Under the pieces are notes generated by a model. That model searched no databases. It was not told the DNA's origin and worked only from the letters and a program-made list of their open reading frames with translations. Made by a program: the position numbers and the translations under genes. Source: an uncultured delta proteobacterium (lineage in GTDB: Bacteria; Desulfobacterota; Binatia; UBA9968). From it: 64,000 bases of DNA. This document shows, in pieces, positions 2,645 through 22,128 of this stretch. The stretch's first letter is position 1, and each line of letters begins with the position of its first letter. Where the stretch lies: contig CAVUZH010000003.1 in the NCBI GenBank assembly GCA_963745835.1, forward strand, positions 224,001 to 288,000, read 5' to 3'.

Positions 2645-3699
2645 AGCACGTACTGTTCGAAGAGGGATATCGGTTCGATTTTTTTCAGGCGGTGCGCGTC
2701 CTGGAGCGCCTCTATTCCGCGCGACTGCCTGTCGGACGCAGTTCCATACCTGCCAAGGAGGCGGTGCGCTTCCGGTCGCTTCTTTCTCTCAGCTTTCCCC
2801 CCAGCTCGATTTACGATGTTGCTTATCCCGACAACGGCGATAGTCCACCCGAGATGGTCGTGGCGTTTATGGGCTTGTTCGGTTTAGCGGGAGTGCTGCC
2901 GCGCCATTACACCGAGCTTCTGCTCGAGCGGGTGCGCCAGAAAGATTTCGCCCTGCGCGATTTTCTCGATCTCTTCAACCACCGGATGATCTCACTCTTT
3001 TATCGCGCCTGGGAGAAATATCGTTTTCCGGTGGCATACGAGCGTTCCCGTTTGTCCTCGGACGCTCATTATGATCCGTTCTCGTTTTCGCTATTCAATC
3101 TGATTGGAATGGGAACGGACGGGCTTCGAGGCAAGCTCAAATCCGGCGATGAACCTCTGCTGTATTACAGTGGCTTGATAGCCCAACAGCCGCGTTCGGC
3201 CTGCGCGCTCCAAGCTATGCTGGGTGACTATTTCAACGTGCCGCTGATCATCAAGCAATTTATCGGCGCTTGGCTCCGTGTTGATGATGAGAATCGCACC
3301 AGGCTTGGCCGTGGTGACTCCAATAACGAGCTTGGCACCACGACGATGCTCGGCTCTAAGTGCTGGGACCAACAAGCGGGCTTCACTTTAGCCGTCGGCC
3401 CGCTCAAGTTTCAGCAGTTTCGCGAATTTCTTCCTTGCGAGACTGGATTTAATTCATTGGTCGAACTGACTCGTTTTTTTGTCGGTTTAACGCTTGATTT
3501 TGATGTCCAATTGGTTTTACAAGCAGCTGAAGTACCGGGCTGTCGTTTGACCAGGCCAGGGCCGGAAGCGCTCCGACTCGGCTGGTCGAGCTGGCTAAAG
3601 ACAAAAGAGTTTTCTTGCGATGCCGCAGAGGCGGTTCTAGGACGCCATTTAACGCGCATGCAAAAATTATCTGGCCACCCTTCGCAGGCAACGCTATAG
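2608..3699 (+). CDS. tssG: T6SS baseplate subunit TssG
   Basis: FDFFQAVRVLE, SLSFPPS, FMGLFGLAGVLPRHYTE, DFLDLFNHRMISLFYRAWEKY, LGWSSWL motifs; follows tssF. Confidence 0.95.
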   Translation: MATESRRADPSLEHVLFEEGYRFDFFQAVRVLERLYSARLPVGRSSIPAKEAVRFRSLLSLSFPPSSIYDVAYPDNGDSPPEMVVAFMGLFGLAGVLPRHYTELLLERVRQKDFALRDFLDLFNHRMISLFYRAWEKYRFPVAYERSRLSSDAHYDPFSFSLFNLIGMGTDGLRGKLKSGDEPLLYYSGLIAQQPRSACALQAMLGDYFNVPLIIKQFIGAWLRVDDENRTRLGRGDSNNELGTTTMLGSKCWDQQAGFTLAVGPLKFQQFREFLPCETGFNSLVELTRFFVGLTLDFDVQLVLQAAEVPGCRLTRPGPEALRLGWSSWLKTKEFSCDAAEAVLGRHLTRMQKLSGHPSQATL

Positions 3700-6447: not shown

Positions 6448-8613
6448 ATGAATTACACTCAACAAGATCGGGCGATGGCGGTTACTACTCCGCTGGGCGC
6501 GGATAAGCTGTTGCTGCTGTCGTTCACCGGTCAAGAGGCGATCTCTCGGCTGTTCGATTTTCAACTGGATCTCACGGCCGAAAATGAGGTCGACGTCGCT
6601 TTTGACAAACTCCTAGGCCAGAAGATTACCACCAGGCTTGATTTACCGGACGGCGAGAAGCGCTACTTCAGCGGCATCTGTAATCGTGTGAGCCAGGGCG
6701 AACGAGACGAGATTTTTACTCGATATCGAATGGAAGTCGTGCCTCAGTTCTGGCTGCTGACGAAAAGGGCGCAGAGCCGGATTTTCCAGCAGATGACCGT
6801 GCCGGACATTCTCAAAAAAGTATTAACCGGGCTCGATGTGACTTATGAGATCCAGGGCAGCTTTCATCCGCGCGATTTTTGCGTCCAGTACCGCGAGACC
6901 GACTTTAACTTCGCCAGCCGGCTGATGGAAGAAGAGGGGATCTTTTATTTCTTTAAGCACAATTCGGAAGGCCACCAGCTGGTGGTGGCGAACACGCCGC
7001 AGAGCCATCCCGACTTGCCAACCCAGAGCAAGATTATTTATGAAGAGGTCCAAGACGGCAATCGGGAAGAAGACCGAATTTATGACTGGGAAAAAGTGCA
7101 GGAGTGGCGCTCGGGAAAGTATGTCTTGTGGGATCATTGCTTCGAGCTGCCGCACAAACATCTGGAAGCCGAAGCCAATATTCTCGACGCTGTTCAGGTC
7201 GGAAAGGTTAGTCACAAGTTCAAAGTCGGTGGCAACGATAAGCTCGAGATCTACGATTATCCAGGCGAGTACGCCCAGCGCTTTGACGGCATCCAACCGG
7301 GCGGCGGCGATCGCGCCGGCGATTTGCAGAAGATTTTTCAAGATAACCGGCGGACTACAGACATCCGCATACAGGAAGAAGCCCTGCCCGGATTAACCAT
7401 CCAGGGCGGCAGCAATTGCCGGCAGTTTGTCAGCGGCTACAAGTTTACCCTGCAAAGGCATTTCAACGCCGACGGCGACTACGTGATCACAAACGTGACT
7501 CATTCGGCACGCCAGGCGGGCGACTATCGGTCGAACGGCGGCGATTTTCATTACAGTAACAGTTTTAGCTGCATACCGGCGGCGTTACCGTTCCGGCCGC
7601 AGCGATTGACTCCGAAACCGGTGGTGCAGGGAACTCAAACGGCGGTCGTCGTGGGTCCGGCGGGCGAAGAGATTTTCACCGATAAATACGGCCGGGTTAA
7701 AGTTCAGTTTCACTGGGACCGTCAAGGAAAGAATGACGCGAACAGTTCCTGCTGGGTGCGCGTGGGAACGCCGTTGGCGGGAAAGCAGTGGGGCATGGTC
7801 CACATCCCGCGCATCGAGCAGGAAGTCATCGTTGACTTTCTCGAAGGCGATCCCGATCAGCCGATCATCATCGGCAGCGTTTACAATGCGAAGGAGATGC
7901 CGCCGTACGCGCTGCCCGATAACAAGACCCAGACAGGGATCAAGAGCCGCAGCAGTCTCGGCGGAACACCCGACAATTTCAACGAGATCCGTTTCGAGGA
8001 CAAAAAAGGACAAGAGCAAGTCTATATCCACGCCGAAAAGAACGAAGACATCGTCGTCGAGAATGACAAGACGGAAAACGTCGGCCACGATGAAACGATC
8101 ACGATCAGTAATGATCGCACCGAAACCGTCATGGGCCACGAAACTTTGTCCGTGGCCAAAAACAGAACCCGCACGGTGAGTCAGAACGAGATTGTGACTG
8201 TGGCGTTAACGCGCACACACACGGTCGGCATCAATGAAATGATCAATATCGGCGCGGCGCAGGAAGTGACGGTAGGCGCAATGCGCGCCTTAACGGTTGG
8301 GATCAATCAGGCGACGACTATCGGCAAGAATCTAAGCGAGAATATTGGCAGTGACCAGAGTGTTGATGTCGGCAAAAACTTGACGGAAAAAATTGGGACT
8401 AACCAGACCACATCGGTCGGCAAGAACCTGACGATAACTGCCGGCGATCAGATTGTTATCAAAACCGGCCAGTCCAGCATCACGATGAAGAAGGATGGAA
8501 CGATTACGATTGCCGGCAAGGACATTACGGTTAACGCATCCGGCAAGATTTTTGAGAAAGCAACTGGCAACATCGTCTTAAAGGGTCAAAAAATTTTGGA
8601 GAACGTAAAATGA
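6448..8613 (+). CDS. vgrG: T6SS spike protein VgrG/TssI (no C-terminal effector extension)
   Basis: CVQYRETDFNFASRLMEEEGIFYFF, GTQTAVVVGP..EEIFTDKYGRVKVQFHWDR, FLEGDPDQPIIIGSVYN, NEIRFEDKKGQEQVYIHAEKN and 8-residue gp5-like beta-helix repeats. Confidence 0.96.
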   Translation: MNYTQQDRAMAVTTPLGADKLLLLSFTGQEAISRLFDFQLDLTAENEVDVAFDKLLGQKITTRLDLPDGEKRYFSGICNRVSQGERDEIFTRYRMEVVPQFWLLTKRAQSRIFQQMTVPDILKKVLTGLDVTYEIQGSFHPRDFCVQYRETDFNFASRLMEEEGIFYFFKHNSEGHQLVVANTPQSHPDLPTQSKIIYEEVQDGNREEDRIYDWEKVQEWRSGKYVLWDHCFELPHKHLEAEANILDAVQVGKVSHKFKVGGNDKLEIYDYPGEYAQRFDGIQPGGGDRAGDLQKIFQDNRRTTDIRIQEEALPGLTIQGGSNCRQFVSGYKFTLQRHFNADGDYVITNVTHSARQAGDYRSNGGDFHYSNSFSCIPAALPFRPQRLTPKPVVQGTQTAVVVGPAGEEIFTDKYGRVKVQFHWDRQGKNDANSSCWVRVGTPLAGKQWGMVHIPRIEQEVIVDFLEGDPDQPIIIGSVYNAKEMPPYALPDNKTQTGIKSRSSLGGTPDNFNEIRFEDKKGQEQVYIHAEKNEDIVVENDKTENVGHDETITISNDRTETVMGHETLSVAKNRTRTVSQNEIVTVALTRTHTVGINEMINIGAAQEVTVGAMRALTVGINQATTIGKNLSENIGSDQSVDVGKNLTEKIGTNQTTSVGKNLTITAGDQIVIKTGQSSITMKKDGTITIAGKDITVNASGKIFEKATGNIVLKGQKILENVK

Positions 8614-9149
8614 AGAACCGGGTCATTAGAAACGCTGTGTACAGCCAGAAGAACCGAATTGAGCCAATGGATCAAGCGAGAACGTCTACTCTTTTGGAAC
8701 TCATCACCGAAGGAAGATCGCCAATGCAAATCCAGTCGGCGGAGTTATTGTTGGAAAATTTGCGGGTTTCGACGCTGCGGGAGATCCGCTAGTCAATTTT
8801 GTCGCCGATATCGATCTGCAGAGATATCGTCGCACGTTCCATGATCGCGCTCAGAGAAGACCAAGTAGGATCTGACGTTGTTCTCGCTTTTGAACATGGC
8901 GACTTAGCAAAGCCCATTGTCACGGGTCCCTTTGGCAGCGCGAAGATCCTCGTTCGCAAAAACTAGTTGTGGCAGAAGCTCGACGGAGAGCGTATAACTC
9001 TAACCGCTCAGAAAGAAATAGTTCTCCGTTGCGGCAAGGCGAGTATCACGCTGACTCAAGCAGGCAAAGTTCTCATTCGAGGAGCTTATCTTTCCAGTCA
9101 TTCATCAGGTGTGAACAGGATCAAAGGCGGTTCTGTCCAAATCAACTAG
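8610..9149 (+). CDS. DUF6484-family T6SS accessory protein, split by several frameshifts
   Basis: Reading across frames gives GVIVGKFAGFDAAGDPLVNF...IALREDQVGSDVVLAFEHGDLAKPIVTG...DGERITLTAQKEIVLRCGKASITLTQAGKVLIRGAYLSSHSSGVNRIKGGSVQIN*. Confidence 0.8.
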
Positions 9150-9258
9150 CTGAGACGCTTGACGTTTTATTGCAGTCAAGCGCAGAAAACGCAAATCGTC
9201 GGCAGAGCCGGACCACCCATGACGGCGATAGATCCGCTTCTCAGTTGCACTTGCACCG

Positions 9259-10532
9259 ATGAGCTTTACTGAGAGTGAGACTTCTACTGTTATCAAGGCG
9301 ATAATTGAGCAGCACGCGGACGAGGCCGCTTTTCTGTGGACCGTGCGAGATCGAGCTGTGCTTTCATCCAGCTACTCTCTTAAAGATACTTTCAGCCTTA
9401 GATGAACGAGTTGAAGCACATCTCGATGGCCTGCGTGTCGCCGGTCCGTTTGGCTGGGAGGCCTGTGAACAGGCTTTGGATCAAGCGGAACCTGGATGTG
9501 TGTTCCCGGCTACGGTGCTGGCGTTTGATAGTGGCGATGCTGAACGGATTCGCCGAGTTTTGCAAATAGCTTGTTTGTCGCCCGAGTTGCAGCGGGGACT
9601 CATTTCGGGTCTTGGATGGTTACCTTTTAGCAAGATCGAGGCAGACCTAAACGATATCCTTGTTTCTGAACTTCCGGAGATGCGCTGTATAGCCATTGCA
9701 GCTTTTGCTGCGCACCGTCGGGATCCTGGTGAGCCGTTAATGCAAGCACTATCTGATCCGAATGCTCGATTGCGGGCACGAGCACTCAAAGCTTGCGGAG
9801 AACTAGGGAAGGCGGATTTCTTGCCTCTGATTTTGAAGTCCATTTCAGATCAAGACGAGAGTGCCGTTTTTTTGCGGCCTGGTCTGCAGCTCGCCTTGGA
9901 GATCGATCGCAGCAAGTTGCTCAGACACTGAAAGAGATCGCATTTGGCGACGAGTGAGTATGCGGAACGGGCGTTAGACATTGCTCTGAGGATTATGAAT
10001 TTTCAAGACGCAAAAAGCTGGTATCAACACCTCAAGAGAGAACCTGCTCAACTCCGTACAGCAATAGATGCAGCCGGAATTATCGGAGTCCCAGAATTCG
10101 TAACAGACTTGATTGATTTCATGAAGCATCCAGCCGATTGCGCGGCTTGCCGGGCAATCGTTCTCGATGATTACGGGGGTGAATCTCGCCTACGAGAATC
10201 TGAGCGGAGATAAGCCAGAGGATTTTGACGCTGGACCAACAGAAGATCCCGAAGATGAAAATGTGGCAATGGATCCGGATGAGAATTTACCGTGGCCTGA
10301 CGCGGCGTTAGTGACAAAGTGGTGGAATCAGCATCGGCCGAAGTTCCAAGCTGGCAGACGATATCTCAGAGGCAAGGAAATCGCCACTCAATCACTTCGC
10401 GAGGTCTTGATCGAAGGAAATCAGCGCGAGCGTGCCGTGGCAGTTTTGGAGTTAGCTGTTAAAAAGCCGGCAGAGCGTTTGTTCGAAGTCCGGGCTCGGG
10501 CAGCATTCCAATTCGAGGCATTGAGGCTCTAG
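9259..10532 (+). CDS. TIGR02270-family HEAT-repeat T6SS accessory protein, frameshifted (about 3 breaks)
   Basis: IIEQHADEAAFLW..RDRA...LDERVEAHLDGLRVAG; ITGVNL; DDENV-like EDENVAMDPDENLPWPD...WW...GRRYLRG...GNQRER spread over ORFs 9305-9931, 9944-10213 and 10167-10532. Confidence 0.85.
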
Positions 10533-10585
10533 AACTTTTGGACGAGTGAAGAAGAACATTACTTGCTAAATCGGCTTAGCATAGG

Positions 10586-11974
10586 ATGGCGTGCATGAAT
10601 CATATCAAGCCGTATGACGAGCTGCCTTACAAATGCCTTCCGATCGAATGGACGGCGCCCGAGCGACTTGCGCTCGCTTCCATTCTGCATGGAGGCCCGC
10701 GACCCTCGCTCGACACATACAGAGTGCTTGAGCTTGGATGTGGAAATGGAGCGAATCTATTGCCGCTGGCGTATTATCGGAGGCACGCAACTTTTGTCGG
10801 TCTAGACGGCGCTCTTACCCAGATTGAAATCGCCGATGCTCGCAAATCAGCACTGGAGTTATCCAACATCGAATTTATTCACTCGAATTTCTTTACAGCA
10901 GCCCAGAGACTCTGGGGTCAGTTCGACTTCATTATCGCTCACGGCATCTTTTCATGGGTAACCAACGACGTCCGTGATGCTCTGCTAGAGCTCTGCGCAC
11001 AACACCTTCGCCCCGGTGGTCTGCTCTACCTGAATTATAATACAAGACCGGGCTGGAACGTGCGTGGCATGGTAAGGGAGTTTCTTCTCGCGCAGACAGC
11101 CGGGACGACAAGCCTCCAAATGCGAGCTCAGGCCGCCCAGGATGTTGCAGCCAAAATCGTTTCGTCCCTGACGATAGCTGAACATCCTTACTCGCAACTG
11201 ATGGCTAACGAGTTTCGATTTGTTTGTGAGAATCATGTGTCCTATGTCGCGCACGAATACCTCGCGTCCGAAAACCATCCCTATTGGAGAAGCAAATTCC
11301 TGGGATTGGCGCGAGCCTATGGACTTGAGTATGTGACCGACGCAGACTTCTGTTATAGCTCGGGGCGACTTCCTGAAGACTTGGTATCACGACTCAGTGA
11401 AGAGCAGATTGCAGGACGTACGCTCGATGATACCGTGGACCTGCTGTGCTATCGACAACTGCACTCTCCAATCCTGACGCATAGCCCATTGACATTGCGA
11501 CCTCCGAGCATCGAGGAGTTCGCGAACCTAATCGTCGCTTCGTGTCTCGTACCCTGTGCCTCGAACAATACTGAGAACCCAATGTTCCAACATCCGTCCG
11601 GCTATCAGGTTGAAGCAAAGACGGTAGATATGGCGACTGCACTCAGCGGGTTACAGTCGCTGTGGCCACGAGGCCTCCGTATAGGTACTTTATTCCCAGA
11701 TGTGAGGGGGATCATCGATGATCTGAAGCTTCTACAGCGGAACGGACTCATCGAACTGCGTTGCATTGAGCCCGGCGAGTTTAGTGTCGGTCGGACGCCG
11801 CTAAACAGATTGGAGAGCCGGTGGGGCGATTATGTTACGTCTCCCATATCACACACCGGAAGCTGTCCCGAAGCGAGTTTGGAAGCCGATCCTGTTGATA
11901 TGAACGCTAACTCGCAAGTCAGGTCTCTGGAGCGGACAGCGCAACAATCTCTTGTCTCTTCATGTCGCCGCTAA
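10586..11974 (+). CDS. Class I SAM-dependent methyltransferase with regulatory domain (MethyTransf_Reg / rickettsial PKMT-like)
   Basis: YDELPY..PERL, VLELGCGNGANLLP (motif I), FDFIIAHGIFSWV, LRPGGLLYLNYNTRPGW, YVAHEYLASENHP. Confidence 0.85.
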   Translation: MACMNHIKPYDELPYKCLPIEWTAPERLALASILHGGPRPSLDTYRVLELGCGNGANLLPLAYYRRHATFVGLDGALTQIEIADARKSALELSNIEFIHSNFFTAAQRLWGQFDFIIAHGIFSWVTNDVRDALLELCAQHLRPGGLLYLNYNTRPGWNVRGMVREFLLAQTAGTTSLQMRAQAAQDVAAKIVSSLTIAEHPYSQLMANEFRFVCENHVSYVAHEYLASENHPYWRSKFLGLARAYGLEYVTDADFCYSSGRLPEDLVSRLSEEQIAGRTLDDTVDLLCYRQLHSPILTHSPLTLRPPSIEEFANLIVASCLVPCASNNTENPMFQHPSGYQVEAKTVDMATALSGLQSLWPRGLRIGTLFPDVRGIIDDLKLLQRNGLIELRCIEPGEFSVGRTPLNRLESRWGDYVTSPISHTGSCPEASLEADPVDMNANSQVRSLERTAQQSLVSSCRR

Positions 11975-11985
11975 GGTAAAGAAGA

Positions 11986-13012
11986 ATGTGGGCCGTAACA
12001 AATCGTACTCCTTATAAAGTTGGGCGTGTTTGGGGGCGTGACAAGGACGGTGTCCACGAGTGGATTGTGGCCGTCAAGGGCACTTTCGACATCAAGCCTG
12101 ATGGCAGTCTCAGGCTTGCCGATGAGCAACTCGAACCATTGCTGCTGCCGGAGTATAACGGCGAGCCAGGTGTATCGAGCCTGCGCTACGACGCTGATCT
12201 TGTTGCACCAAAGCCCACAACGGATGTGGTGGTCAATGGCACGGCATATGCGCCAAAAGGACACCCGAGCACAGACTTTCTCGTTTCGGTTCGCGTAGCT
12301 CGGATCCAAAAGACGATTCGAGTCAGAGGTCACAGCGAGGATGGAAGCGGGGGCTGTTCGGTCTCGAACCATCGGCTCGGAACCGATCACTAAACTTCCG
12401 ATCATCTATGAGCGCGCTTACGGTGGATACGATCAAACGGATCCTGATCCGAAAAAGCAACGCATAGATTTGCGAAATCCGGTGGGCTGCGGCGTAGTCG
12501 GCGAAATCAAAAAATCGAATTGGTCAGCATTACCCAATTTCGAATACCCCAAAGGAAAGCTAGAAAAGGCCGGCCCTGCCGGCTTTGGCGCCATCGACAG
12601 CTATTGGTCGCCGCGACACGAACTGCAGGGCACATACGACAAAGCTTGGCAGAAGGATCGTTACCCACTTTTGCCTAATGATTGGGATCCACATTCCCTG
12701 TTGTGTTCGCCCCCAGACCAGCGCCCCAAAAAACACCTGCATGGCGGCGAACTCGTCGAACTAGAGAATCTGACACCGAACGGCAAGCTCCGCTTTACCC
12801 TGCCGACGGCTTACCTACGTTTCCTGACGCACATCGACAATCGCACTGAAGAACACGAGCGTCGGCTGGCCACGGTGATCATCGAGCCCGATTATCCACG
12901 CCTGATCATGGTGTGGCAGTCCGTGCTGGCGGTTCGTAATGACGGCGATTATCTCGATGAGACCGTCGTGACTGAGAACGAATATTTCGGAAGGCTGGCA
13001 TCGAATGGCTAG
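11986..13012 (+). CDS. DUF2169-family T6SS adaptor/chaperone, frameshifted near 12335-12380
   Basis: NRTPY..WIVAVKGTF..SSLRYDADLVAPKPTTDVVVNGTAYAP, then PIIYERAYGG..NPVGCG..PAGFGAI..WSPR..GTYD..W...SPPDQ..GGELVELENL. Confidence 0.9.
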
Positions 13013-14073
13013 TTCGATTCAGATCGTCGGAATTGGCGCGCGGACGCCCCTCGGTGATGCGGCCACCGCCGCGGCCGCCGTTCGAGCAGGACTGACGGGG
13101 CTCGGCCAGCATCCCTTCATGTTGGATCGCGACGCCGTTCCTATCCCCGGCCGCCCTCGTCGCGGAGCTCGATCTGACCGACATGGGTCCCAAGCGCCTG
13201 CTCGCATTGGCCGAACCCGCGCTGCGCGACGCTTGCGCGTCGCTCGACTCCGGCAGGTCGGTTCGACAGCGGTTGCCTGTTTTCCTGGGACTGCCGGCGC
13301 TCCGGCCCGGATTCACCGAAAAGTATGCCGAGGCCGTGCGAACCGGATTGGCTCGACTGGACGGGCTCCCGGCGGACCTCGCTGAAATCACGGTTTTCTC
13401 CCATGGGCACGCGGCGGGAGTATCGGCCTTGGCGGCAGGGTTCGAGCATCTCCACAACTCCACGTTCGAGGTGTGCCTCGTCGGAGGTGTGGACAGCTAT
13501 TTCCACGCCGACACGGTGGACTGGCTCCTCGCGAATCGCCAACTGGCCGGCGCGGTCTCGCGTTCCGGTTTTGTGCCAGGTGAAGGAGCGGCGTTTTGTT
13601 TGCTGGCCACCGACAAAGGTCTCAACCGTCTTGGTCTGAAGCCCATGGCGCGCGTGCGTGCGGTGGCCGTCGGTAAAGAAACGAAGTTGATCAAGACAAC
13701 GGACCTGTGCCTCGGCGAAGGTCTAAGCGCAACCGTGAGAGACGCGGTGAGTGGTCTGCGACTTCCCGATGAAAGGATCAACGAAATCTATTGCGACATC
13801 AACGGCGAACGCTACCGCAGCGAAGAGTGGGGATTTGTCTGCCTGCGCTTGGCACAGTACTTCGACGATGCGACAACGTATCATTCGCCGGCCGAATGCT
13901 TGGGCGATATGGGCGCCGCCTCGGGACCGTTCTTTGCGATCCTGGCATGCCAGGCCTTTGCGCGCCGTTACTCCAGAGGACCGCGCGTCATGTTGTGGGC
14001 GAGTTCGGAAGGTGGCCAACGAGGTGTCGCGGTGTTAGAGGATTCGACGGCGGGACTGAAAGAAAGGAATTAA
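13005..14073 (+). CDS. Thiolase/beta-ketoacyl-synthase-fold T6SS accessory protein (PRK06147-like), frameshifted near 13150
   Basis: IVGIGARTPLG..AAAVRAGL; CLVGGVDSY; GFVPGEGAAF; GEGLS; DINGERYRSEEWG; PAECLGDMGAASG. Confidence 0.85.
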
Positions 14074-14074
14074 G

Positions 14075-14898
14075 GTGCCAAGTGTAGCCATCCATCCGCC
14101 GAAGACGCCGGTCCATAAAGGCAGCCACACGATCGCAAAAGCCACCATTCCAAACATCTGCAAGATGCCGGGGCCGCCGGCGCCGTTCGTGCCCGCCCCG
14201 CTGCCGAACATCGCCAAGTCGGAACTCTCGCCGAAAGATTACTCGACGACGGTCAAGATCGAAGGCAATACGGTCGCGATCAGAGGTTCGACGTTTGAAA
14301 GCATCGGCGATATGGCCAGCAAAGGCACCGGGGGTGGCTTGATCTCGGCCAATTTCACGGACCGGCCAAGTTCATCGCCCCCGGTTCGATGACCGTCAAG
14401 ATCGAGGGGAAGAACGTCCATTTGCTTGGCGACTCGATGCTCAACAATCTGGGGCCGAGCGGCAGCCCGCCGAACACGGGCGCGACCATGATGGGTGCGG
14501 ATCATGCGGACCTGTCGATGGAATCGAGGTGCAAGAAGGCACGCGAAAGAAGCGGAAGACTGGCGAATGAATTCAGGCACGGCCTGGACCAGCCGATGAG
14601 AAGCCGGCAATCGTGCAGTGCTGTCGATACGAATGGCAGATTGAGTACAGGGGTGAGAGGTTCCAGCTACCTCTGGTGAGTGACCTCGCAAAACAGTTTC
14701 CGTCTCCGCATAACCACAAATGTGCTGAATTGACGGCCATTTCCAGAATATCAGCATGCATGGACTGGAGACGGTGCGGGATGCGTTATCACAACAGTCA
14801 ATGTGCGAAGACCAGGTCATGAAGATCACAACACAAAGGAACCGGCCTGCCCGGGGTGCAAACCGCTGCTGGAGGCCTTAGGCATCATCAGATGTTGA
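14075..14898 (+). CDS. DUF4150 (PAAR-like) spike-tip protein fused to a C-terminal YwqJ-like deaminase toxin; multiple frameshifts
   Basis: PNICKMPGPPAPFVPAPLPNIAKS..TVKIEG..GDMASKGTGGGLIS..GSMTVKIEGKNVHLLGD.MLNN. C-terminus reconstructed as ..PSPHNHKCAELTAISR..ITTVNVRRPGHEDHNTKEPACPGCKPLLEALGIIRC* (CAE at 14721, CPGC at 14848). Confidence 0.75.
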
Positions 14899-14914
14899 GG
14901 CCCGGAGAGCTCAG

Positions 14915-15407
14915 ATGGATATTTGGAAGGACTTGACGACCAGAGAAATGCAGGCTTATGGAGCCTTATGTCTGCATCGCTTTTGCAAAGCCACAGGATC
15001 AACATCGATCCATTGATGAACTGATCGACCATCTTCTCTCAATGCTGGTCTCCTATCCCTTGGACAAGTGGGAACGCCGAGGAGCGCGCCTGCACTTGAA
15101 CAGGTAGAGGCTGGGATCCGCTTCCGGCATCTCTGAACGACCAGCTTCCCGAAGAACTTCGGAAAGACTTCGCCCGGTTCGTCGAAGACGTTGTGGATAT
15201 CGGCTTCTGCGATATGTATGGGGCCCCCACGACCAAATCGCTGAAGTATTTATAAAAAGCTTGACGTTTCTGGACGAACACGGGATTGAGCGTCCAGACG
15301 TGGCCGAACTCTTTAAGAATCGCACCCCGAGAGGGGGGACCGCTCCGGACTTGGGAGAAGTATTCTCTCAGGAACGATACGAGCAGGTGAGAGCGTTGTT
15401 CCGATAA
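14915..15407 (+). CDS. Putative cognate immunity protein (~165 aa), frameshifted
   Basis: GGAGAG RBS then ATG 14915. Across frames: MDIWKDLTTREMQAYGALCLHRFC..SIDELIDHLLSML..WERRG..GRGWDPLP..DFARFVEDVVDIGFCDMYGA..FLDEHGIERP..YEQVRALFR*. Directly behind the toxin domain. Confidence 0.6.
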
Positions 15408-15512
15408 CGTGACCTGGCACGTCGATCCAATAGGCTGCCCCACACATGTTGTCGATCTATGGAATGCCTGTCCGGTGTGACTTGTCTCGTTGCGGAGGCG
15501 AACCGATAGACC

Positions 15513-15831
15513 GTGCGTGCCAACCCATACGACGAGCTACCCTACAAATCGCTCCCCATCGAATGGACCGCACCCGAACGCCTTGCGGTGGCTTCGCTCC
15601 TTCATGGGGGTCCCCGAGCGCCGGTGGAGACCTATCGGGTTCTGGATCTGGGCTGCGGCAACGGTGCGAACGTCGTACGGCTAGCGTACTATCGGAGACA
15701 GGCCGCCTTTGTGGGTTGACGGTGCAGCGAGCCAGATCGAACTCGCGAACTTTTGGAAGTCGGCTCTGGACCTCTCCAACATCGAGTTCATCCACACGGA
15801 TTTCCGCACTTGCCCAACTCGTCTGGGGTCA
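15513..15831 (+). pseudogene. 5' fragment of a second PKMT-like methyltransferase paralogue, truncated by the transposase element
   Basis: NPYDELPYKSLPIEWTAPERLAVASLLHGGPR..YRVLDLGCGNGAN..AYYRRQAAFVG..QIE..SALDLSNIEFIH closely parallels the N-terminus of 10586..11974; similarity stops at ~15831. Confidence 0.85.
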
Positions 15832-16117
15832 AATCTTTATCTATAATTTTAGACTCGACTAATCTTCTCATTTCGTGTTAAGAGTTGATCATGGCCCGGC
15901 CCTTGAGAATCTTTTATCCCAATGCGGTTTATCATGTTACCTGTCGAGGTAACGATAGAAAGAATATCTTCGAGACGATAGGGATCGGCGAGTGTTCCTG
16001 AAACACCTCCAGAATTCAAGAGAGATCTACGGCGTCAAGGTTCAAGCCTACGTGTTGATGAGCAATCATTTCCACTTGATCCTGGAGACGCCGAAGGCCA
16101 ATCTTTCCGAGTTTATG
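15825..16117 (+). mobile_element. Truncated 5' copy of a Y1/HUH (RAYT-like) transposase element
   Basis: Begins GGGGTCAAATCTTT; ATG 15891 MARPLRIFYPNAVYHVTCRGN.. and, after a shift, ..AYVLMSNHFHLILETPKANLSEFM; ends abruptly. Confidence 0.85.
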
Positions 16118-16133
16118 TGCTTCTGGGCAATCA

Positions 16134-17186
16134 GGGTCAAATCTTTACATATGATTTAGCTAGACTGATTCTTTCGTGGGCTTGCTATGGGTTGGTCATG
16201 GCACGGCCCTTAAGAATTCTTTATCCCAATGCTTTTTATCACGTTACCTGTCGAGGGAACGATAGAAAGAAGATTTTCGAGACGATCGCGACCGGCGAGC
16301 GTTCCTAGAAAAGCTAAATACCTCAAGGGAAATCTATGGCGTTAATGTTCAAGCATACGTGCTGATGAGCAATCATTTCCATTTAATTGTAGAGACGCCC
16401 AAGGCCAACCTCTCCGACTTCATGAGGCATTTTAATATTGCATATACCGGCGCCTATAATCGCCGACACAAGAGAGTAGGACATCTATATCAAGGGAGAT
16501 ACAAAGCCATATTGGTGGATAAAGACAGCTACCTGTTGGAATTGAGCCGCTATCTTCATTTGAATCCAGTTAGAATCAAAAGCTCTCGAGAGCGCAGCTA
16601 TCAGGAGCAGATCAAAACCCTGGAAGGATACACCTGGAGTAGTTTAGGCGGTTATATAGACACCAAGAAGAAGGTTCCTTGGATCACTTATGATCAAGTG
16701 CTAAATCAGGTCGGCGGTTCCCGAACCAAATACAAGGAGTTTGTCAAAGAGGGCATGAAAAGTGGCTATCGGACACCATGGGACAAAGTGGAGGGGCAGA
16801 TGGTTTTGGGAGATAAGAGATTCTTACAGAAGCTCAAGGGCAAATGGGAGAAAGCGGCATCGCGACGCGAGCAGCCATCGGCGAGAGCGTTCTCCGCAGT
16901 TGACTCTGAAGCGGTGATACGAGCGGCAAGTGCATATTTCAAGATCGGGCGAGAGGAACTGAGCAAGAAACGAACTCGTTATCGAGACGAGCGCAGCGTT
17001 GTGATGAATTTGATGTATCGCCTAAGCGCGATTAGTCAGGCGGAGATTGGACGGACACTAGGAGGTCTAGACTACACCGCTGTGAGTCGGGAACGCAAAA
17101 GACTGCGAGATAAAATAGCGGTCGATCAGAAGCTCAGACGAGCGATGGAAAATTTGGAAACTAAATTAGGCACCTAACATTTGACC
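16134..17186 (+). mobile_element. RAYT-like Y1 tyrosine transposase element (CDS 16198..17177, one frameshift near 16278) with C-terminal DnaA-C-like HTH
   Basis: MARPLRI..YHVTCRGN; HUH motif LMSNHFHL; GHLYQGRYKA; RYLHLNPV; YTWSS; C-terminal SQAEIGRTLGGLDYTAVS. Bounded by GGGTCAAAT (16134) and inverted ATTTGACC (17179-17186). Confidence 0.9.
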
Positions 17187-17377
17187 AGCGACGGTCTTCT
17201 AGATAGCGCATAAATCAGACTACTGAAGCAGCAATGCTGAGAGCAGTCGGAATACTGGAAGGCGGTCATCAAAAAATTTCGACGAGTGATGAGCTAACTT
17301 TCGAGTGAAGGCTTTGCCGCTAGTACTCATATTGGCTATTTGATCTCACGGCATCAACGAGCGTCGGTTAGTTCTCC

Positions 17378-17560
17378 ATGACTGATCCGGGTTTTAAGAT
17401 TTCATTCATTTTCTTTGCCCTGGCCGTGATCTTTTTGGTTGTCTCGGTTAGAGATTATTCAAGAAACAAAGGTAAAACAAATCCGGCGCGGCAAACCTGG
17501 CTCAGAGTTTCTTTTATCTTTGCTGCGGTCGGAATTGTGCTCGCTTTGATGCACATCTGA
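17378..17560 (+). CDS. Small two-TM membrane protein
   Basis: 60 aa with two hydrophobic helices separated by a basic loop. Confidence 0.6.
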   Translation: MTDPGFKISFIFFALAVIFLVVSVRDYSRNKGKTNPARQTWLRVSFIFAAVGIVLALMHI

Positions 17561-17652
17561 GAACGAAGGGAAATCCATCGTGCTTTGGTCTGGTTTGCCT
17601 TGACACGTCAGGCCGCATCTAAACGGTCTGGCATGGAAGCGAAGGACGTCAG

Positions 17653-18231
17653 ATGAAGATCTCGCTCAAGACTTTCCATCAATCTAGATTGTGTTTGCGG
17701 ATTCTGCTCGTGACCGCGATACTGACTAGCTGCACTCCTGCCGTACCGCGAACCTTGCCGCCGGAGAGCTACAACGGGCCGACGGCGGAGCAACCGTTAT
17801 TCCAAAAAGGAGATTTCTGGATCTACGAAGCGGGTAACGCGGCGCGTACGAAGTCGACGGGATTATACCCAAACCTGAACTTCCCGCTTTGGATTGGCAA
17901 AACTTGGAGCTATGAAACCGAGGTCCGGAGGGCCCATTTGCCGCCAAGCAGTATGGGTTCCCCTTTGCGTGGACAGGTCGATTGCGCTGTAAAGGCGGTC
18001 GACAAACTAACCGTCAGGGCGGGAACGTTCGAGGCATTTCGATGCGAATGCGATTGCGAACTTTTGATTGGTGAAGGGCAATACCAGTCGGGCTGCGGCA
18101 CGTGGACGATTTGGTACGCGCCGGATGTTAAAAACGTGATCCAAACAAAAACGGCGAGCACCTCTAGTTCGGTCGAATTGATCCAGTATAAAATCTCCCG
18201 TGCCAGTGCGGGTACAAAAATGGCTCCTTGA
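17653..18231 (+). CDS. Predicted lipoprotein, beta-rich (VxAGTF..WYAP motif)
   Basis: Lipobox-like LTSC after a hydrophobic stretch; LTVRAGTFEAFRC..TIWYAPDVKNVI. Confidence 0.7.
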   Translation: MKISLKTFHQSRLCLRILLVTAILTSCTPAVPRTLPPESYNGPTAEQPLFQKGDFWIYEAGNAARTKSTGLYPNLNFPLWIGKTWSYETEVRRAHLPPSSMGSPLRGQVDCAVKAVDKLTVRAGTFEAFRCECDCELLIGEGQYQSGCGTWTIWYAPDVKNVIQTKTASTSSSVELIQYKISRASAGTKMAP

Positions 18232-18447
18232 TTACGAAAATTGATCTCTCACTTACGAACGTTAAACGTTGTCAAATGATCTGGTTGATCTTTAGTAAGC
18301 CATTTAAGTACTGTAGGCACATTAGGTGGTCTAACCGTTTTCGCTTTTCCCGATACTGATGATGTCCCATGGTACGCCACTAACGATTAACAATGCTGCA
18401 TCTTCTCCCCTAAATTCGACTCGCAACAATACTTAGAGGATTTCCCA

Positions 18448-19256
18448 ATGACGCAGTCAAGAATTCCAGGTCCCTTGGGCCAAACGCCTGACGCAGACAC
18501 GCTCGAAGCGCGATCCATAGGATTATCGTTGCGGCCGGGTCGGCGTGCGCCCCAGGCCGACAGCCCGCCAGGCCCTGTGGGGCTACATATTTGGAGCGCG
18601 CCGATATTCGCTGCGCCGGGCGCCGTAGCAAAGGTGACAAATACCGGATCCGGCGGCAAGGCGTTGATCGTAGTCGGCACTGGTCATGACGATCTCAAGA
18701 GAGACGTCCGCTATCCGGACGACAAGCACTTCACCCAGGCGATTCTCGAGTTCTTCGCTCCGCATACCAAGGGATGACTGTGACGATCAAGCACGTGAAC
18801 AGCGCGAAAGAGATGAAACACCTTATCGCGGAAGGATCGTGGGAACTCGTCGCATACTTCGGGCATGGCGTGGTCAACCAGATGGCGCTTGAACCGAAAG
18901 AAGGCGGCGCGCGGCTGTCAAAGGATGAATTGGTCACAGCTTTGAAACAAGCCAAACCCAGCCGCGTTCTTCTCATGGGCTGCAAGGCGGGGTGGACTGG
19001 CCTCGGCCGGCAAATCTCGACCGAGCTGCCGGGCGTAACGGTCGGCGCGACCTTTGAATCGCTCGACGTCACCTGGGAGCAGGGGAAGCCCAAGGACGGC
19101 GACTTTTACAACCGGCTGAATCCGAGCGAGGAATTCACGATCTACAAGGACGGGTTTCAGCTGGACAACGGGCAAAAGGCAAAATGGCGCAAGCGCGAGC
19201 AAGTTGACAAACTCGATCCCAATGGCGACCCTCTGGGCGAGCGGGTCGCACAATGA
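18448..19256 (+). CDS. Putative caspase/CHAT-fold cysteine peptidase with PGPLG/PGPVG N-terminal leader (probably one gene broken at ~18773)
   Basis: Leader MTQSRIPGPLG..SPPGPVG; strand ALIVVGTG; His-Cys dyad motifs LVAYFGHG (His 18864) and VLLMGCKAG (Cys 18981). Confidence 0.6.
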
Positions 19257-19477
19257 ATGGCATCGCCTTGGCCGATAATTACGAACGGCGAAACTTTGAA
19301 CCCCAATACCAGCTAACGCGTGCTTCTAGAAGTGATCGTATACTAACGGTGCCCTTGTGCGTGCCAAGATAATCCACCTTGGCTTAACGTATCTGAAGGA
19401 ATCCGGTAGCAACTTTAGACACGGCATTATGTCCGAGTAGCCGGTGTCGACACCGACTTCTTGACCGCCGCAGATGA

Positions 19478-20005
19478 TTGCACCGGGAAATTGGTGAATC
19501 GCTGATATCATCAGATGTGAGGGCGGCGCATGTGAGGACCTTAACGCCGGATGTTTTGAATGCTTTTGCTGGAAGTCCCAGTGAGGTGACTGTCACGGGT
19601 CCGAAGAGCTTTCTGCGGGCCGCTGGCGCCGACAATAATCCATTTGGTCGTTGGTGGTTCGCTGCAGAGACCCTCCTCGGGATGAACGAGTCCTTTGAAC
19701 GGATTCCATTGCCTCCGGGACAACGAAGGGAAGCGCTTCTCGGCCGAATCCGGGCGGCTACTGCAATATCGGTGGACTGGAACACGCTAAGCGAGTTCTG
19801 GATGATGCAGCTGCCAAAAGGCGAAGAGTTGAGTGGCTACACCGGACCCACCAGCCCGCAGGCGGTTTTTTCCGTTAAGCATGCGCTGCACAACGCCAAT
19901 CTCGTGCTGGCCGGTGGCGCGATCCAATATTATTTCCCGGTCATAAATCCGCTCTGGGTGAGACGTTTGGATCCTTCCTCGACCTCTAATAGAACCTCAT
20001 ACTGA
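19478..20005 (+). CDS. Hypothetical protein resembling ADP-ribosyltransferase/NADase-fold toxin domains
   Basis: Motif order FLR...GRWW...R..TAISVDWN...YTGPTSPQ...GGAIQYYFP; start codon uncertain. Confidence 0.5.
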   Translation: MHREIGESLISSDVRAAHVRTLTPDVLNAFAGSPSEVTVTGPKSFLRAAGADNNPFGRWWFAAETLLGMNESFERIPLPPGQRREALLGRIRAATAISVDWNTLSEFWMMQLPKGEELSGYTGPTSPQAVFSVKHALHNANLVLAGGAIQYYFPVINPLWVRRLDPSSTSNRTSY

Positions 20006-20246
20006 GATTGAGAAACCAGAATGGCTGAGACGATGAGATTATAAAAAATGTCATCGTGTTCATAATGCTCATCAAAAAATATGTAGGTGCAATCCATTAG
20101 CGAAGACAGCTACCAGTCTACTCCACAAGACTCTGATGAAATATGAGAAGACTAATCCCGAGACGGTAGTTCAGAAAATGAATAACTGTCGTTGTGTGTA
20201 TCACGTTGGCAACAGGTCGAATGCAAAAAAGCACTTGAGTCAATTG

Positions 20247-21041
20247 CTATGAGCATTCGTAAGGCACAAGCCGAAGCCTGACGTCAGGGTGTCGATTGAC
20301 TGCATAGACCAAATCGGCCCAATGTAGCTTGCCTATAACGAGCTGGACCTGCGTCTCCTGCCGCGCGAGTGCGACGGCGAGTGCTGTTTGGAGAGCCAGA
20401 AAGCTTCGTTCCGGGATAATACCTGTGTGCCAGAGGTTCAAACGCGTTACCTCTTCCTGGAGCAGCTTGGCAACTTCTATTTTATTTGTCTCCCTATCTG
20501 TACTCCCGGGCTCTTTTCCGAGTTCAACCGCTTTGCCGGCAGATTTGCCCAGCTCTTTTACGACCCAGCCTGCCAAATCATTTAAAAACTTCACTTCAAA
20601 ACCATAGACGAACAGGTTTTTTTGACTGGCCAAGATCCATCTCGACTGGATCCGATCGCTGCGGGGCACCTCTGAAACCGCGATAGATGCGGGTTTATCA
20701 AACGTTCCGGCAAAATAAAATCCTTCAACGACCACAGCGGGGACGCCGTTTTCGGCGATGCTAAGGACGGTGGAAACGATGCTTTCCTGACATGCAGCAA
20801 CCTTGCCCATGTCCTGAATTTCGCGCCGTTTTGGATCGGGATGTTCATGGATCTGAAGAATTACATGGACGGTCACTGGGAATTCACTCAACCGTTGCTT
20901 CGAGACAATGCCCCTGGACTCAATCACTGTCCCTGCTTTCAGAGGCGTTGCGGTGGCGCTGGAGCGTCCGGTCAGAAGCAAAACTAGAAGAAGGAGTACG
21001 GCTCTGGAACTGAACGCTATATTGAGGGCGATCACGTTCAT
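20247..21041 (-). CDS. Secreted protein, EreA/ChaN/TIKI-like fold
   Basis: Signal peptide; VHVILQIHEH..CQESI..AVVVEG..ERSF..VQLVIGKLH pattern; GGAGG RBS. Confidence 0.55.
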   Translation of the reverse strand: MNVIALNIAFSSRAVLLLLVLLLTGRSSATATPLKAGTVIESRGIVSKQRLSEFPVTVHVILQIHEHPDPKRREIQDMGKVAACQESIVSTVLSIAENGVPAVVVEGFYFAGTFDKPASIAVSEVPRSDRIQSRWILASQKNLFVYGFEVKFLNDLAGWVVKELGKSAGKAVELGKEPGSTDRETNKIEVAKLLQEEVTRLNLWHTGIIPERSFLALQTALAVALARQETQVQLVIGKLHWADLVYAVNRHPDVRLRLVPYECS

Positions 21042-21357
21042 AAAACCTCCGAAGGCGTCATCCGCCTAAACGCGTGTTGTATAGATACGCCGCAGAGTGG
21101 AGTACAGCAACCGGGAGGCCTCTTGCTAAGACGCTTATAAATCCGAGAAATGTCAGAATATAAAACTCCGCAAGGCGGGGTGTCTTCTCGACGCCGCGGG
21201 TGGACGTTTGATCTCTAATTCACCGGAATGATCTTACCTTGTCCGTTCCACGATGAATCTGCCGCCAGATGATCTCATTCGGTGGCGTATCTCGCTGTGT
21301 GCAACTCGCATTAAGTGCTTTTCTTGACTGGTGAACTGTGCTACATGCCAGGCTGTC

Positions 21358-22128
21358 ATGGCACAGGAAAACCTACGGGAAACGTTGGGGCTCGAACAAG
21401 TTGTGGAACTTCGCGAAAAAACGGAGAAGATTTCGAGATCCTTGCTGGGGCAGCTTAGAGATTACTTGGACACGCTACGGCCCTTGTTGGCGCCTGCGCG
21501 CGTGTTTGGCAAGCACGTGCGGTCACCGTTGCGGGAAGATGTTCCCGACGCGGAGAGTGCTGTCAAAAAGTTATGCGAGAAATTTAACGGAATCTGCGCC
21601 AAGCCATTTTCCTTGCCACCTAATTTGGGCAATGACGCGGTAGCGGATCTGGACGGTCGCCTGGAGCTCTATCCTTGGGAATATACCCATGAGGCGAAGG
21701 ACCACGATCAAACCAAAACTATCACGGTATCCTCACCGGTAAGGCACGTACTCACGTACAAATCCTCCTATTCGCTCTCGCAGATCAGATTGGCAGTTTC
21801 CGGAAAAGGGGACCGACGACAAGACGATATTCGGGAGTTTCTAGTCGCCGCATTAGCGATGCAGGCTGCTCTTGATAAGTTCCCCGGGCTTGTGCGGCTT
21901 TTGGAAGAATTGCGCTACCATGTTCAAGTCGAGAAAAACCCGGCTCTCGGCGACCTTCCTCTCGTGGTGATTAGCTCGTCGGTTCCTTCCTTCCGCCCGT
22001 CTGATCAAGTGGTTTTGGCTACGACCAGATTATCCGGTGTACCGGCATTTATCGAGCTCATCGATCTGGACTCAATTCACCGGCTGCAAGATCCGTTGAA
22101 ATCTCGACTAGAGGAAGCGCTACGCTAA
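21358..22128 (+). CDS. Conserved-looking hypothetical cytoplasmic protein
   Basis: Intact 256-codon ORF with normal composition; no recognisable domain. Confidence 0.75.
   Translation: MAQENLRETLGLEQVVELREKTEKISRSLLGQLRDYLDTLRPLLAPARVFGKHVRSPLREDVPDAESAVKKLCEKFNGICAKPFSLPPNLGNDAVADLDGRLELYPWEYTHEAKDHDQTKTITVSSPVRHVLTYKSSYSLSQIRLAVSGKGDRRQDDIREFLVAALAMQAALDKFPGLVRLLEELRYHVQVEKNPALGDLPLVVISSSVPSFRPSDQVVLATTRLSGVPAFIELIDLDSIHRLQDPLKSRLEEALR

Follow-up and report, generated by a model that had tools for sequence, protein, structure and literature searches.

A candidate loading leader with twin PGPxG motifs on an interrupted, caspase-like peptidase gene in a type VI secretion island of an uncultured Binatia bacterium

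Introduction

Some polymorphic toxins end in a caspase-like domain that acts as the toxin: the class named Tox-Caspase by Zhang et al. 2012 (PMC3482391) has a caspase-like alpha/beta fold with a dyad in which His precedes Cys, and it closes Rhs and TcdB/TcaC-type proteins. Two putative cysteine proteases of Pseudomonas aeruginosa, Tce1 (PA0256) and Tce2 (PA2372), have been reported as cargo of the Hcp3 lumen of the H3 type VI secretion system (H3-T6SS), and Tce1 is given there an unresolved N-terminal extension that is thought to reach into the second ring (PMC13323088; PDB 9qpe). Here, we describe a gene at positions 18448 to 19256 of a stretch of 64,000 nucleotides (nt), hereafter the window, which is taken from contig CAVUZH010000003.1 (positions 224,001 to 288,000; assembly GCA_963745835.1) of an uncultured delta proteobacterium of the Binatia (Desulfobacterota). 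The gene encodes a leader with two short PGPxG motifs, followed by a domain that is very probably a cysteine peptidase of clan CD, and it is found among the accessory genes of a T6SS cluster.

Like Tox-Caspase, the family of the window has the caspase-like fold, the His-then-Cys dyad and, in its relatives, the terminal position in Rhs and TcdB/TcaC-type proteins; the form in the window differs in that it is not matched by Pfam or NCBIfam, stands alone at 269 amino acids (aa) and has its own leader instead of a repeat shell. With Tce1 it shares its standing as a small putative cysteine protease, the His-Cys dyad, the fold and an N-terminal extension outside the catalytic domain. Tce1 and Tce2 are described as having no obvious immunity gene nearby. 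However, no sequence similarity to Tce1 is detectable, and the N-terminus of Tce1 spans about 100 aa, has been modelled as a domain, and makes a contact with the second Hcp3 ring that is described there as nonspecific (PMC13323088). Fold and dyad order are also those of the cysteine protease domains (CPDs; family C80) of MARTX, TcdA and TcdB and of the CHAT proteases; the structures 3gcd, 3eeb and 3ho6 are among the matches of our model, with SAVED-CHAT at the top. The CPD, in contrast, is an internal releasing domain, whereas the domain of the window protein would be the terminal payload.

The leader, for its part, invites comparison with two kinds of N-terminal element. Effector markers of the MIX, FIX, RIX, PIX and WHIX type are folded domains, mostly of more than 100 aa and mostly from Proteobacteria, and these, like PAAR/DUF4150, are described as shared N-terminal modules joined to unrelated C-terminal toxin domains. 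The leader is different in kind, being a disordered stretch of 45-68 aa with two 6-residue motifs, and its occurrences to date come from soil metagenomes, a Verrucomicrobia metagenome-assembled genome (MAG) and the source genome, rather than from Vibrio or Enterobacterales. The other comparison is with the payloads of extracellular contractile injection systems (eCIS), such as the Photorhabdus virulence cassettes (PVC) and the antifeeding prophage (Afp), which are reported to load into the tube via N-terminal, disordered stretches of about 50-70 aa found on unrelated payload enzymes. PVC leaders are not known to have a sharp conserved motif; in the leader of the window, by contrast, two PG..G motifs are invariant and keep a fixed distance from the start, and the link of its gene is to a T6SS rather than to an eCIS. 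T6SS cargo effectors, especially those loaded into Hcp, are said in a 2026 bioRxiv preprint to be without recognisable secretion signals. No description of the leader was found in the papers searched (supplements aside), where the markers encountered were MIX, FIX, RIX, PIX, WHIX and TANFOR; the motif strings themselves led to collagen or peptidomics papers among the matches listed.

Results

One gene in two reading frames

The gene is present in the window as two open reading frames (ORFs), ORF1 and ORF2, that overlap at ATGA (Table 1). A preliminary description of this DNA had taken the junction for a probable frameshift within one gene, and comparison with relatives bears this out. A search with ORF2 returned 20 homologues (among 38 candidates), 14 of which are single proteins of 253-269 aa that are colinear with ORF1 and then ORF2, running without a break through HTKG, a Leu or Met, and TVTIKHV; the remaining six are shorter or partial, and none of these was inspected for a two-gene layout. 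In DNA-level alignments, all five homologous loci have an extra base at the junction. Contigs from four public metagenome runs include a single piece that spans the site, and it shows the same extra base and one frame (run X1; 373 nt, with nine other letters and one gap). No sequencing run contained as much as half of the stretch, and the RNA runs contained small shares of it.

Operons often show ATGA overlaps and ORF2 does begin with ATG, so that two real, translationally coupled genes might be considered. This reading is already contradicted by the whole-length homologues, and in the intact gene the ATG of ORF2 is simply an in-frame codon for Met or Leu. The first strand of the fold (ALIVVGTG), which the preliminary description had already located in the upstream frame and which the structural model now places at residues 71-76, belongs to ORF1, the dyad to ORF2, and this too speaks against two separate genes. 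Thus, ORF1 and ORF2 are almost certainly a single gene that is interrupted in this genome, and the two-gene alternative is barely credible. If the assembly is right, the copy in the source genome is not produced as one protein.

The peptidase domain

The domain was modelled with AlphaFold2 on P0001, an intact 269-aa homologue that is 98% identical to the window protein over ORF2 and 94% over ORF1, using an alignment of 15 homologues. In the model, residues 69-250 form an alpha/beta domain with block-mean predicted local distance difference test (pLDDT) values mostly of 78-94 and two loop blocks at 62-71, whereas the leader, at 31-44, and the leader together with residues 255-269, at 31-48, are unconfident. 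His140 and Cys179, the putative catalytic residues, are invariant in two alignments of 15 and 14 sequences; the His comes before the Cys, each closes a hydrophobic strand, and a Gly follows the His.

Foldseek against the PDB placed SAVED-CHAT at the top (E 5e-4), with caspase-11, CED-3, plant asparaginyl ligases/legumains and the MARTX CPD next. A search of 48,161 chains that did not depend on Foldseek recovered SAVED-CHAT (8tl0_A at Z 9.1; range of Z 9.1-9.4), then 9qpe_G of the Hcp3-Tce1 complex (Z 8.9, root-mean-square deviation 3.7, 146 aligned of 178, with a second-look alignment in agreement), and next raptor, metacaspase 4, the DdvA CHAT domain, legumain and caspase-9 at Z 7.7-7.9. The top fold matches all belong to clan CD (Z 7.5-9.4, 131-168 residues aligned). 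The caspase/CHAT-type fold with His ahead of Cys that had been proposed from the sequence is thus upheld by structure prediction, fold searches and the invariance of the two residues. We conclude that these roughly 190 aa very probably constitute a toxin-type cysteine peptidase domain of clan CD (caspase/CHAT/CPD-like), which would cleave its substrates by means of His140 and Cys179. A search of a plasmid collection found no relative of P0001.

When 1.84 billion representative proteins were searched with a profile of 14 members, 48 matched at E<=1e-3. At least 13 of these are proteins of 312-2353 aa with the domain at their C-terminus, and the others include stand-alone proteins of about 250-270 aa. 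Pfam scanning of 19 matches found seven with RHS or SpvB/TcdB_midN/RHS: P0027, P0038, P0048, P0056 and P0065 are RHS or RHS_repeat proteins that end in the domain, and P0051 and P0054 end in it after SpvB, TcdB_toxin_midN, FG-GAP and RHS. In the Rhs relatives the domain comes straight after a DPxGL motif: the core ends in ...NNPLKYVDPTGL, and the first strand of the domain follows after 1-15 residues (GKGLIIVGAGQ... in P0027). Similarity to these fused relatives begins at about residue 66-69 of the window protein, which is where the leader ends. The C-terminal position after an Rhs core and DPxGL marks this as a polymorphic-toxin domain of the Tox-Caspase kind; the family of the window is a member of that class outside the curated models, and would share its toxicity. 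There is also a converse modularity that the preliminary description did not contain, in that the peptidase domain is itself a swappable tip of Rhs and Tc-BC-like proteins. We also note that the Rhs motif ahead of the toxin domain, VDPxGL (P0027, P0038, P0065 and others), resembles PGPxGL; the likeness may be fortuitous or may reflect the way in which stand-alone cassettes came about.

A conserved twin-motif leader

The leader follows the pattern M-x3-[RK]-x-PGPxG, a spacer of 9-33 aa, and PGPxG[L], with a core motif [IV]-P-G-P-x-G(-L). In an alignment of 16 leaders, four of them from non-peptidase proteins, M1, P7, G8, G11, P41 and G42 are invariant even though the identity among the leaders, which cover four domain families, falls to 20-35%. 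In the homologues, motif 1 starts at residues 6-12 and motif 2 at residues 26-41, with a varying spacer between them, and the start Met stands 4-9 residues ahead of motif 1 in every leader. A six-frame scan of the 7.28-Mb genome found PGP[LVIM]G in 25 stop-to-stop segments (>=60 aa), and doubled solely in this gene; the doubling is not due to chance. Among stand-alone members, the twin motif is kept down to about 42% overall identity, as in loci L012 (ARVPGTLG..RVPGPVGRTLW) and L014 (ARLPGSLG..LPGGLEHTLW), and is also present in P0021, P0022, P0023, P0026, P0028, P0031 and P0042, though not in the stand-alone P0018 and P0024.

Inspection of the 16 leaders by eye found no Sec, Tat or lipoprotein signal peptide, as no hydrophobic run is conserved, in agreement with the earlier claim that the leader lacks a Sec signal. 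After motif 2, the distant members are hydrophilic, again as judged by eye (e.g., WQKHSTLPEPAATKSSKPK), and the RR of the close homologues is lost in leaders that are distant or have short spacers. None of the known T6SS N-terminal markers covered by Pfam (PAAR, Tox-PAAR-like/DUF4150) was found on ORF1, P0001 or P0076-P0080, in a scan that did not separately include models for MIX, FIX, RIX, PIX and WHIX.

The leader on unrelated enzymes

The preliminary description had also proposed that the leader could be fused to variable toxin domains. A search with residues 1-62 as a single sequence against proteins of 147-471 aa gave eight matches among 254 candidates, all of them orthologues, and suggested a family-specific leader; this was overturned by a profile of 12 diverse leaders applied to longer proteins, for which 8000 word-prefiltered candidates were scored (E<=10). 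The profile returned 30 matches, of which 25 belong to the peptidase family and five are other proteins. P0076 (306 aa) carries a Peptidase_C2/calpain domain at residues 67-287 (E 4.5e-12), and P0080 (320 aa) matches Peptidase_C2 weakly, below the cut-off (E 0.0061). P0079 (219 aa; 46 members on 10 contigs) is a Phage_lysozyme/GH24 protein (residues 69-207, E 2.7e-26), and P0077 and P0078 (265 aa) have an HESSH (HExxH) motif and no family match. The HExxH proteins gave no match in a PDB profile search, and for the C-terminal part of P0077 the ESM Atlas offered leads only, to SprT-like (0.94) and Tox-MPTase4 (0.91) proteins.

Pairwise comparison by BLASTP links these proteins to the peptidase family through the leader. 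P0074, a peptidase, and the calpain-like P0076 are identical at 37 of 46 positions over residues 1-46, with nothing beyond (E 7e-11); P0077 matches P0032 (25/41, E 4e-12), P0079 matches P0042 (20/49, E 1e-4), and P0080 matches P0074 (E 2e-6), in each case over the leader. Conversely, homologues of the P0079 lysozyme match from residue 52-59 or later in 10 of 10 viral loci and in the 10 plasmid rows listed of 315 matching records, so that these have the lysozyme domain without the leader. Such leader-confined similarity across unrelated enzymes indicates that the leader is modular, and we regard it with high confidence as a conserved, modular element. Fusion to variable domains is therefore borne out by five protein clusters with unrelated domains, although the kinds of domain number four rather than many. 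Both parts of the protein are modular, with one toxin domain on several scaffolds and one leader on several small enzymes. The leader alone was uninformative in the ESM Atlas, where it led to short hypothetical clusters (0.92-0.93) and to eCIS_core (0.81, below the lead threshold).

Distribution across genomes

The leader profile was run against 401 genomes from the phylum of the source genome (G000) and, around a Verrucomicrobia MAG with a leader gene (G460), against 151 genomes of its order and 401 of its phylum, the last two samples overlapping. No real leader was found in the 400 other genomes of the first sample, the 150 of the second or the 400 of the third; the weak matches listed elsewhere are taken as noise, as they contain stops, cover the profile in part or, for the two inspected of the four from the phylum of G460, lie off-frame in other ORFs. 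Both genomes with a leader gene are T6SS-positive, and the leader gene of the source genome lies in the T6SS accessory region. TssF was found in 23 of 151 genomes of the order of G460 and, among relatives of G000 (itself included), in 6 of 61; against these rates, two T6SS-positive leader genomes out of two are suggestive, at n=2. Support for the tie to contractile systems that the preliminary description expected is thus slender: it comes from two genomes, and both have eCIS-type tube genes as well as a T6SS.

In G460, contig C390 carries TssE, TssF, TssG, ClpV, VgrG, a 348-aa ORF and an Rhs gene cut off by the contig end. At the start of contig C391 (locus L004) are the C-terminal tip of an Rhs protein and, after it, a small ORF, and the leader gene stands 3.7 kb on; the two contigs are likely adjacent. 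The Hcp proteins of G000 and G460 (L016 1483-1971 and L028 1483-1971) both have 162 aa and are, by eye, about 92% identical. This near-identity is seen although the phylum samples drawn for G000 and for G460 apparently have no genome in common; a T6SS island with its effector may have been transferred between lineages, or contig C3 of G000, which bears the T6SS and the leader gene, may have been mis-binned (bin contamination 9.3%).

The 42%-identical member in L014 (a 24.6-kb metagenome contig) is flanked on one side by a YkuD-like ORF (GSAGCIEI) and then a signal-peptide ORF, and on the other by a full TIGR02270 gene, a PG_binding plus HExxH ORF, an FHA-SLT gene and a Ser/Thr kinase. The YkuD-like and signal-peptide ORFs resemble an effector-immunity pair. 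The same island (7536-9800, 13148-13864) holds a CAP12/Pycsar-type TIR protein, VapBC-like pairs, two TIGR02270 copies and a PG_binding_1 plus HExxH protein. In L012, the 52%-identical leader-peptidase gene is immediately preceded by a Peptidase_C14 caspase-domain gene (15-848, E 2.5e-27), so that two different clan-CD genes stand next to each other.

Neighborhood of the gene in the window

The coordinates of the gene, its parts and its neighbors are collected in Table 1.

Table 1. Features of the window (positions in window coordinates; residue numbers refer to the intact protein)
Feature	Position	Strand	Remarks
Whole gene, leader plus caspase-like putative toxin peptidase	18448..19256	+	269 codons; present as two overlapping ORFs
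ORF1	18448-18777	+	109 aa, MTQSRIPGPLG...SPPGPVGLHIW...ALIVVGTGHD...HTKG
ORF2	18774-19256	+	160 aa, bears VAYFGHG and LLMGC; starts with ATG
N-terminal leader, residues 1-68	18448..18651	+	predicted disordered (P0001 pLDDT 31-44), without hydrophobic core
Leader motif 1, RIPGPLG, residues 5-11	18460..18480	+	P7, G8, G11 invariant in 16/16 leaders
Leader motif 2, PGPVGL, residues 41-46	18568..18585	+	P41, G42 invariant; P43, G45 in at least 90% of 16
First domain strand, ALIVVGTGHD	18661..18690	+	model strand 71-76; L73, I74, G77, G79 invariant
Break point	18769..18777	+	window one base short relative to all relatives compared; creates TGA stop and ATGA overlap
Codon of putative catalytic His140, in YFGHG	18864..18866	+	follows model strand 134-138
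Codon of putative catalytic Cys179, in LMGC	18981..18983	+	follows model strand 173-177
TssE/TssF ORF	332-2644	+	T6SS core, intact
TssG	2608-3699	+	intact
ClpV	3713-6382	+	intact
VgrG	6448-8613	+	intact; end 9.8 kb upstream of peptidase gene
TIGR02270 HEAT protein	9292-10532	+	three pieces, internal TGA
Methyltransferase	10586-11974	+	intact
DUF2169	11980-13012	+	two pieces, two frames
3-Oxoacyl-(acyl carrier protein)-synthase-like gene	12972-14073	+	appears split
Tox-PAAR-like fragment	14060-14392, possibly to 14679	+	truncated, profile 4-74 of 108
Lipoprotein-like ORF, directly upstream of peptidase gene	17653..18231	+	LTSC lipobox-like N-terminus

The genome has a single Hcp gene, which is located some 4 kb ahead of the window. 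The preliminary description had put the peptidase gene 3 kb from a T6SS tip cassette, which is roughly so for the PAAR-like fragment, at 3.8 kb from the gene start if its frame extends to 14679, but not for VgrG, at the distance given in Table 1. The ORF that opens the T6SS core encodes 770 aa with GPW_gp25 (TssE, residues 39-117) and TssF (165-767); in G460, TssE (163 aa) and TssF (607 aa) are separate, and the ORF of the window is a fusion or has lost a stop. Between 9292 and 17177 there are also IS200/RAYT-like fragments with a DnaA_C-type helix-turn-helix.

The lipoprotein-like ORF upstream of the peptidase gene is a possible candidate for an immunity protein; by tblastx it also lies upstream of the peptidase in the close loci L005 and L007 and is unmatched in L004, L012 and L014. 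An ORF with a conserved ADNNPFGRWWFAAETLLG stretch and no family match occurs downstream of the peptidase in the window (19478-20005) and upstream of it in L004 (2908-3300) and L009 (3531-3797). In five loci (window 21331-22128, L004 5887-6657, and L008, L010 and L013), the peptidase gene has a conserved same-strand neighbor 0.85-2 kb downstream, which encodes a protein of 256-265 aa (56% identical, of no known family). The metagenome contig L005 is 94-100% alike in its flanks to window 18020-20552 and about 87% identical at the DNA level in the peptidase gene, whose first codon there is none of ATG, GTG or TTG; an unrelated 217-aa ORF on the opposite strand replaces window 19270-19985. The surroundings of the peptidase gene are thus a replacement hot spot.

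Long ORFs (frames of >=200 aa) cover a normal share of the genome as a whole, with a median of 0.78 per 10-kb bin, and only 0.585 of window positions 9301-19300, the 9.5th percentile of the genome. Further broken genes in this interval are those for the TIGR02270 HEAT protein, DUF2169, the synthase-like protein and the Tox-PAAR-like protein, as well as the IS200/RAYT-like fragments, whereas the T6SS core genes, over 8.3 kb, are intact. Broken accessory genes beside an intact core suggest local decay or a locally poor consensus rather than uniform error. Counter to a local explanation, the eCIS-like sheath genes on another contig also look fragmented, and the break at the junction may be a true mutation or an assembly error.

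Discussion

The intact gene would encode a small two-part, effector-type protein made of a disordered leader of about 65 aa and a clan-CD peptidase domain. Because the leader stands in the place of the Rhs shell and is found on other enzymes as well, it can be read as a portable recognition or loading element; the stand-alone form would have exchanged the shell for a leader that hands small enzymes over to a contractile injection machine. On balance, we favor by a small degree the view that the leader is a delivery or loading signal for a contractile injection system, and hold the whole account, in which it loads small toxin enzymes into such a machine, most likely the adjacent T6SS, in the same modest preference. 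That the T6SS in particular is the machine served is a possibility that we rate a little short of probable. The route might then lead through the inside of the Hcp tube, as for Tce1, or over the VgrG/PAAR tip. Bolder still is the proposal that the twin PGPxG(L) leader is the first motif-type address label of contractile injection systems, read by the T6SS tube or tip and sufficient for any fold, and this we regard as doubtful. A prediction of the complex with Hcp (four Hcp copies and the effector alignment) scored 0.00, with no controls run, and carries no weight either way. The TIGR02270 HEAT protein, which its position beside the gene in L014 and after VgrG in the window had suggested as a leader-binding adaptor, was dropped, because G460 has no clear member (21.7 bits) and the copy in the window is in three pieces.

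Several observations weigh against this account. As to the domain, fold matches at Z 8-9 barely exceed the Z 7-8 that is typical of unmatched models. Pfam, NCBIfam and PADLOC matched neither ORF, and Pfam and NCBIfam matched neither P0001 nor the homologue in L014; a profile search of PDB sequences (2026 copy, E<=10, in which the presence of 9qpe chains was unchecked) gave no related match, so that the likeness to Tce1 is one of fold only. We retain the fold class despite the moderate Z because the top matches are uniformly of clan CD and the dyad is invariant. No conserved immunity-like neighbor is evident among the downstream ORFs of the window, L004, L005, L012 and L014. As to the leader, the matches to the five non-peptidase proteins are weak on the scale of the whole database (E 0.05-0.86). 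Real leaders occur in two of the genomes sampled, the source genome and G460, and each has a single leader gene, which is not as expected of a general cargo tag. The leader is found in none of the five T6SS-positive relatives of the source genome and in none of the 22 other TssF-positive genomes of the order of G460. Finally, gp19-type tube genes of contractile injection systems are present beside a T6SS in both leader genomes, two of them in G460, and this renders the machine ambiguous.

The last point raises the alternative that the leader is a packing signal for an eCIS of the Afp/PVC-like kind and not for the T6SS. In the source genome, an eCIS-like cluster opens contig C22 (1-8542, L054) and comprises a CIS_tube gene, two gp19 tube genes, several sheath fragments and Pvc16_N; a fragment of a sigma-54 activator comes after it. 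In both samples fewer genomes have Pvc16_N than TssF (Pvc16_N in 10/151 in the order of G460 and in 3/61 among relatives of the source genome), the disorder and length of the leader are in keeping with eCIS payloads, and Zhang et al. (PMC3482391) count PVC among the delivery routes of caspase-domain toxins. Yet the gene lies on a contig other than that of the eCIS genes, within a T6SS accessory region in the source genome and probably so in G460; Pvc16_N was not found in G460, a genome whose completeness is not given; and the protein has no DUF4157/eCIS_core domain, the lead from the ESM Atlas having fallen below threshold. We hold packing into an eCIS to be a live but rather unlikely alternative. 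CPD-type domains of clan CD cleave themselves after Leu, and both motifs of the leader end in G-L or L-G; the Rhs-fused relatives, moreover, have the DPxGL cleavage motif, with its resemblance to PGPxGL, before the domain. The leader might on these grounds be a regulatory or processing element, such as a propeptide cut at PGPxG/L by its own or a host protease, or else a peptide that targets the protein within the recipient cell. However, its presence on GH24 lysozyme, calpain-like and HExxH proteins means that it is not tied to a caspase-like active site, and on this account a leader that serves as the substrate of its own peptidase was set aside; the model also leaves the leader undocked, at the low pLDDT noted above, which is weak evidence. 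We judge a role of this sort quite improbable.

It might also be asked whether the leader has any function, or is a low-complexity remnant, for instance of the end of an Rhs core that travelled with orphan toxin cassettes. Such an origin would accord with the likeness of PGPxGL to DPxGL, the exchange of the toxin domain among Rhs proteins and the highly variable spacer, but it does not account for motif positions and six residues that stay invariant in 16 leaders of four domain families at the low leader identity given above. This invariance points to purifying selection on a linear motif and not to drift, and a functionless leader is accordingly very improbable.

A loading or delivery signal, the reading that we prefer, would place the leader beside the effector markers described to date, and it is best called a short, disordered, bipartite take on the idea of the N-terminal effector marker. 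Clan-CD and clan-CA-like peptidases, a muramidase and a putative metallopeptidase have it in common. The toxin domain is a fresh member of the published Tox-Caspase class, and no curated model covers the leader. Should the leader not be a loading signal, what stands is a clean annotation of a frameshifted Tox-Caspase member in a T6SS island in which nearly all accessory genes are broken. If it is one, it would provide an experimental handle on the choice of cargo and a search key, usable on sequence alone, for effectors in poorly studied, uncultured soil lineages; and one toxin domain would then have two modes of delivery, within an Rhs shell or after a short leader.

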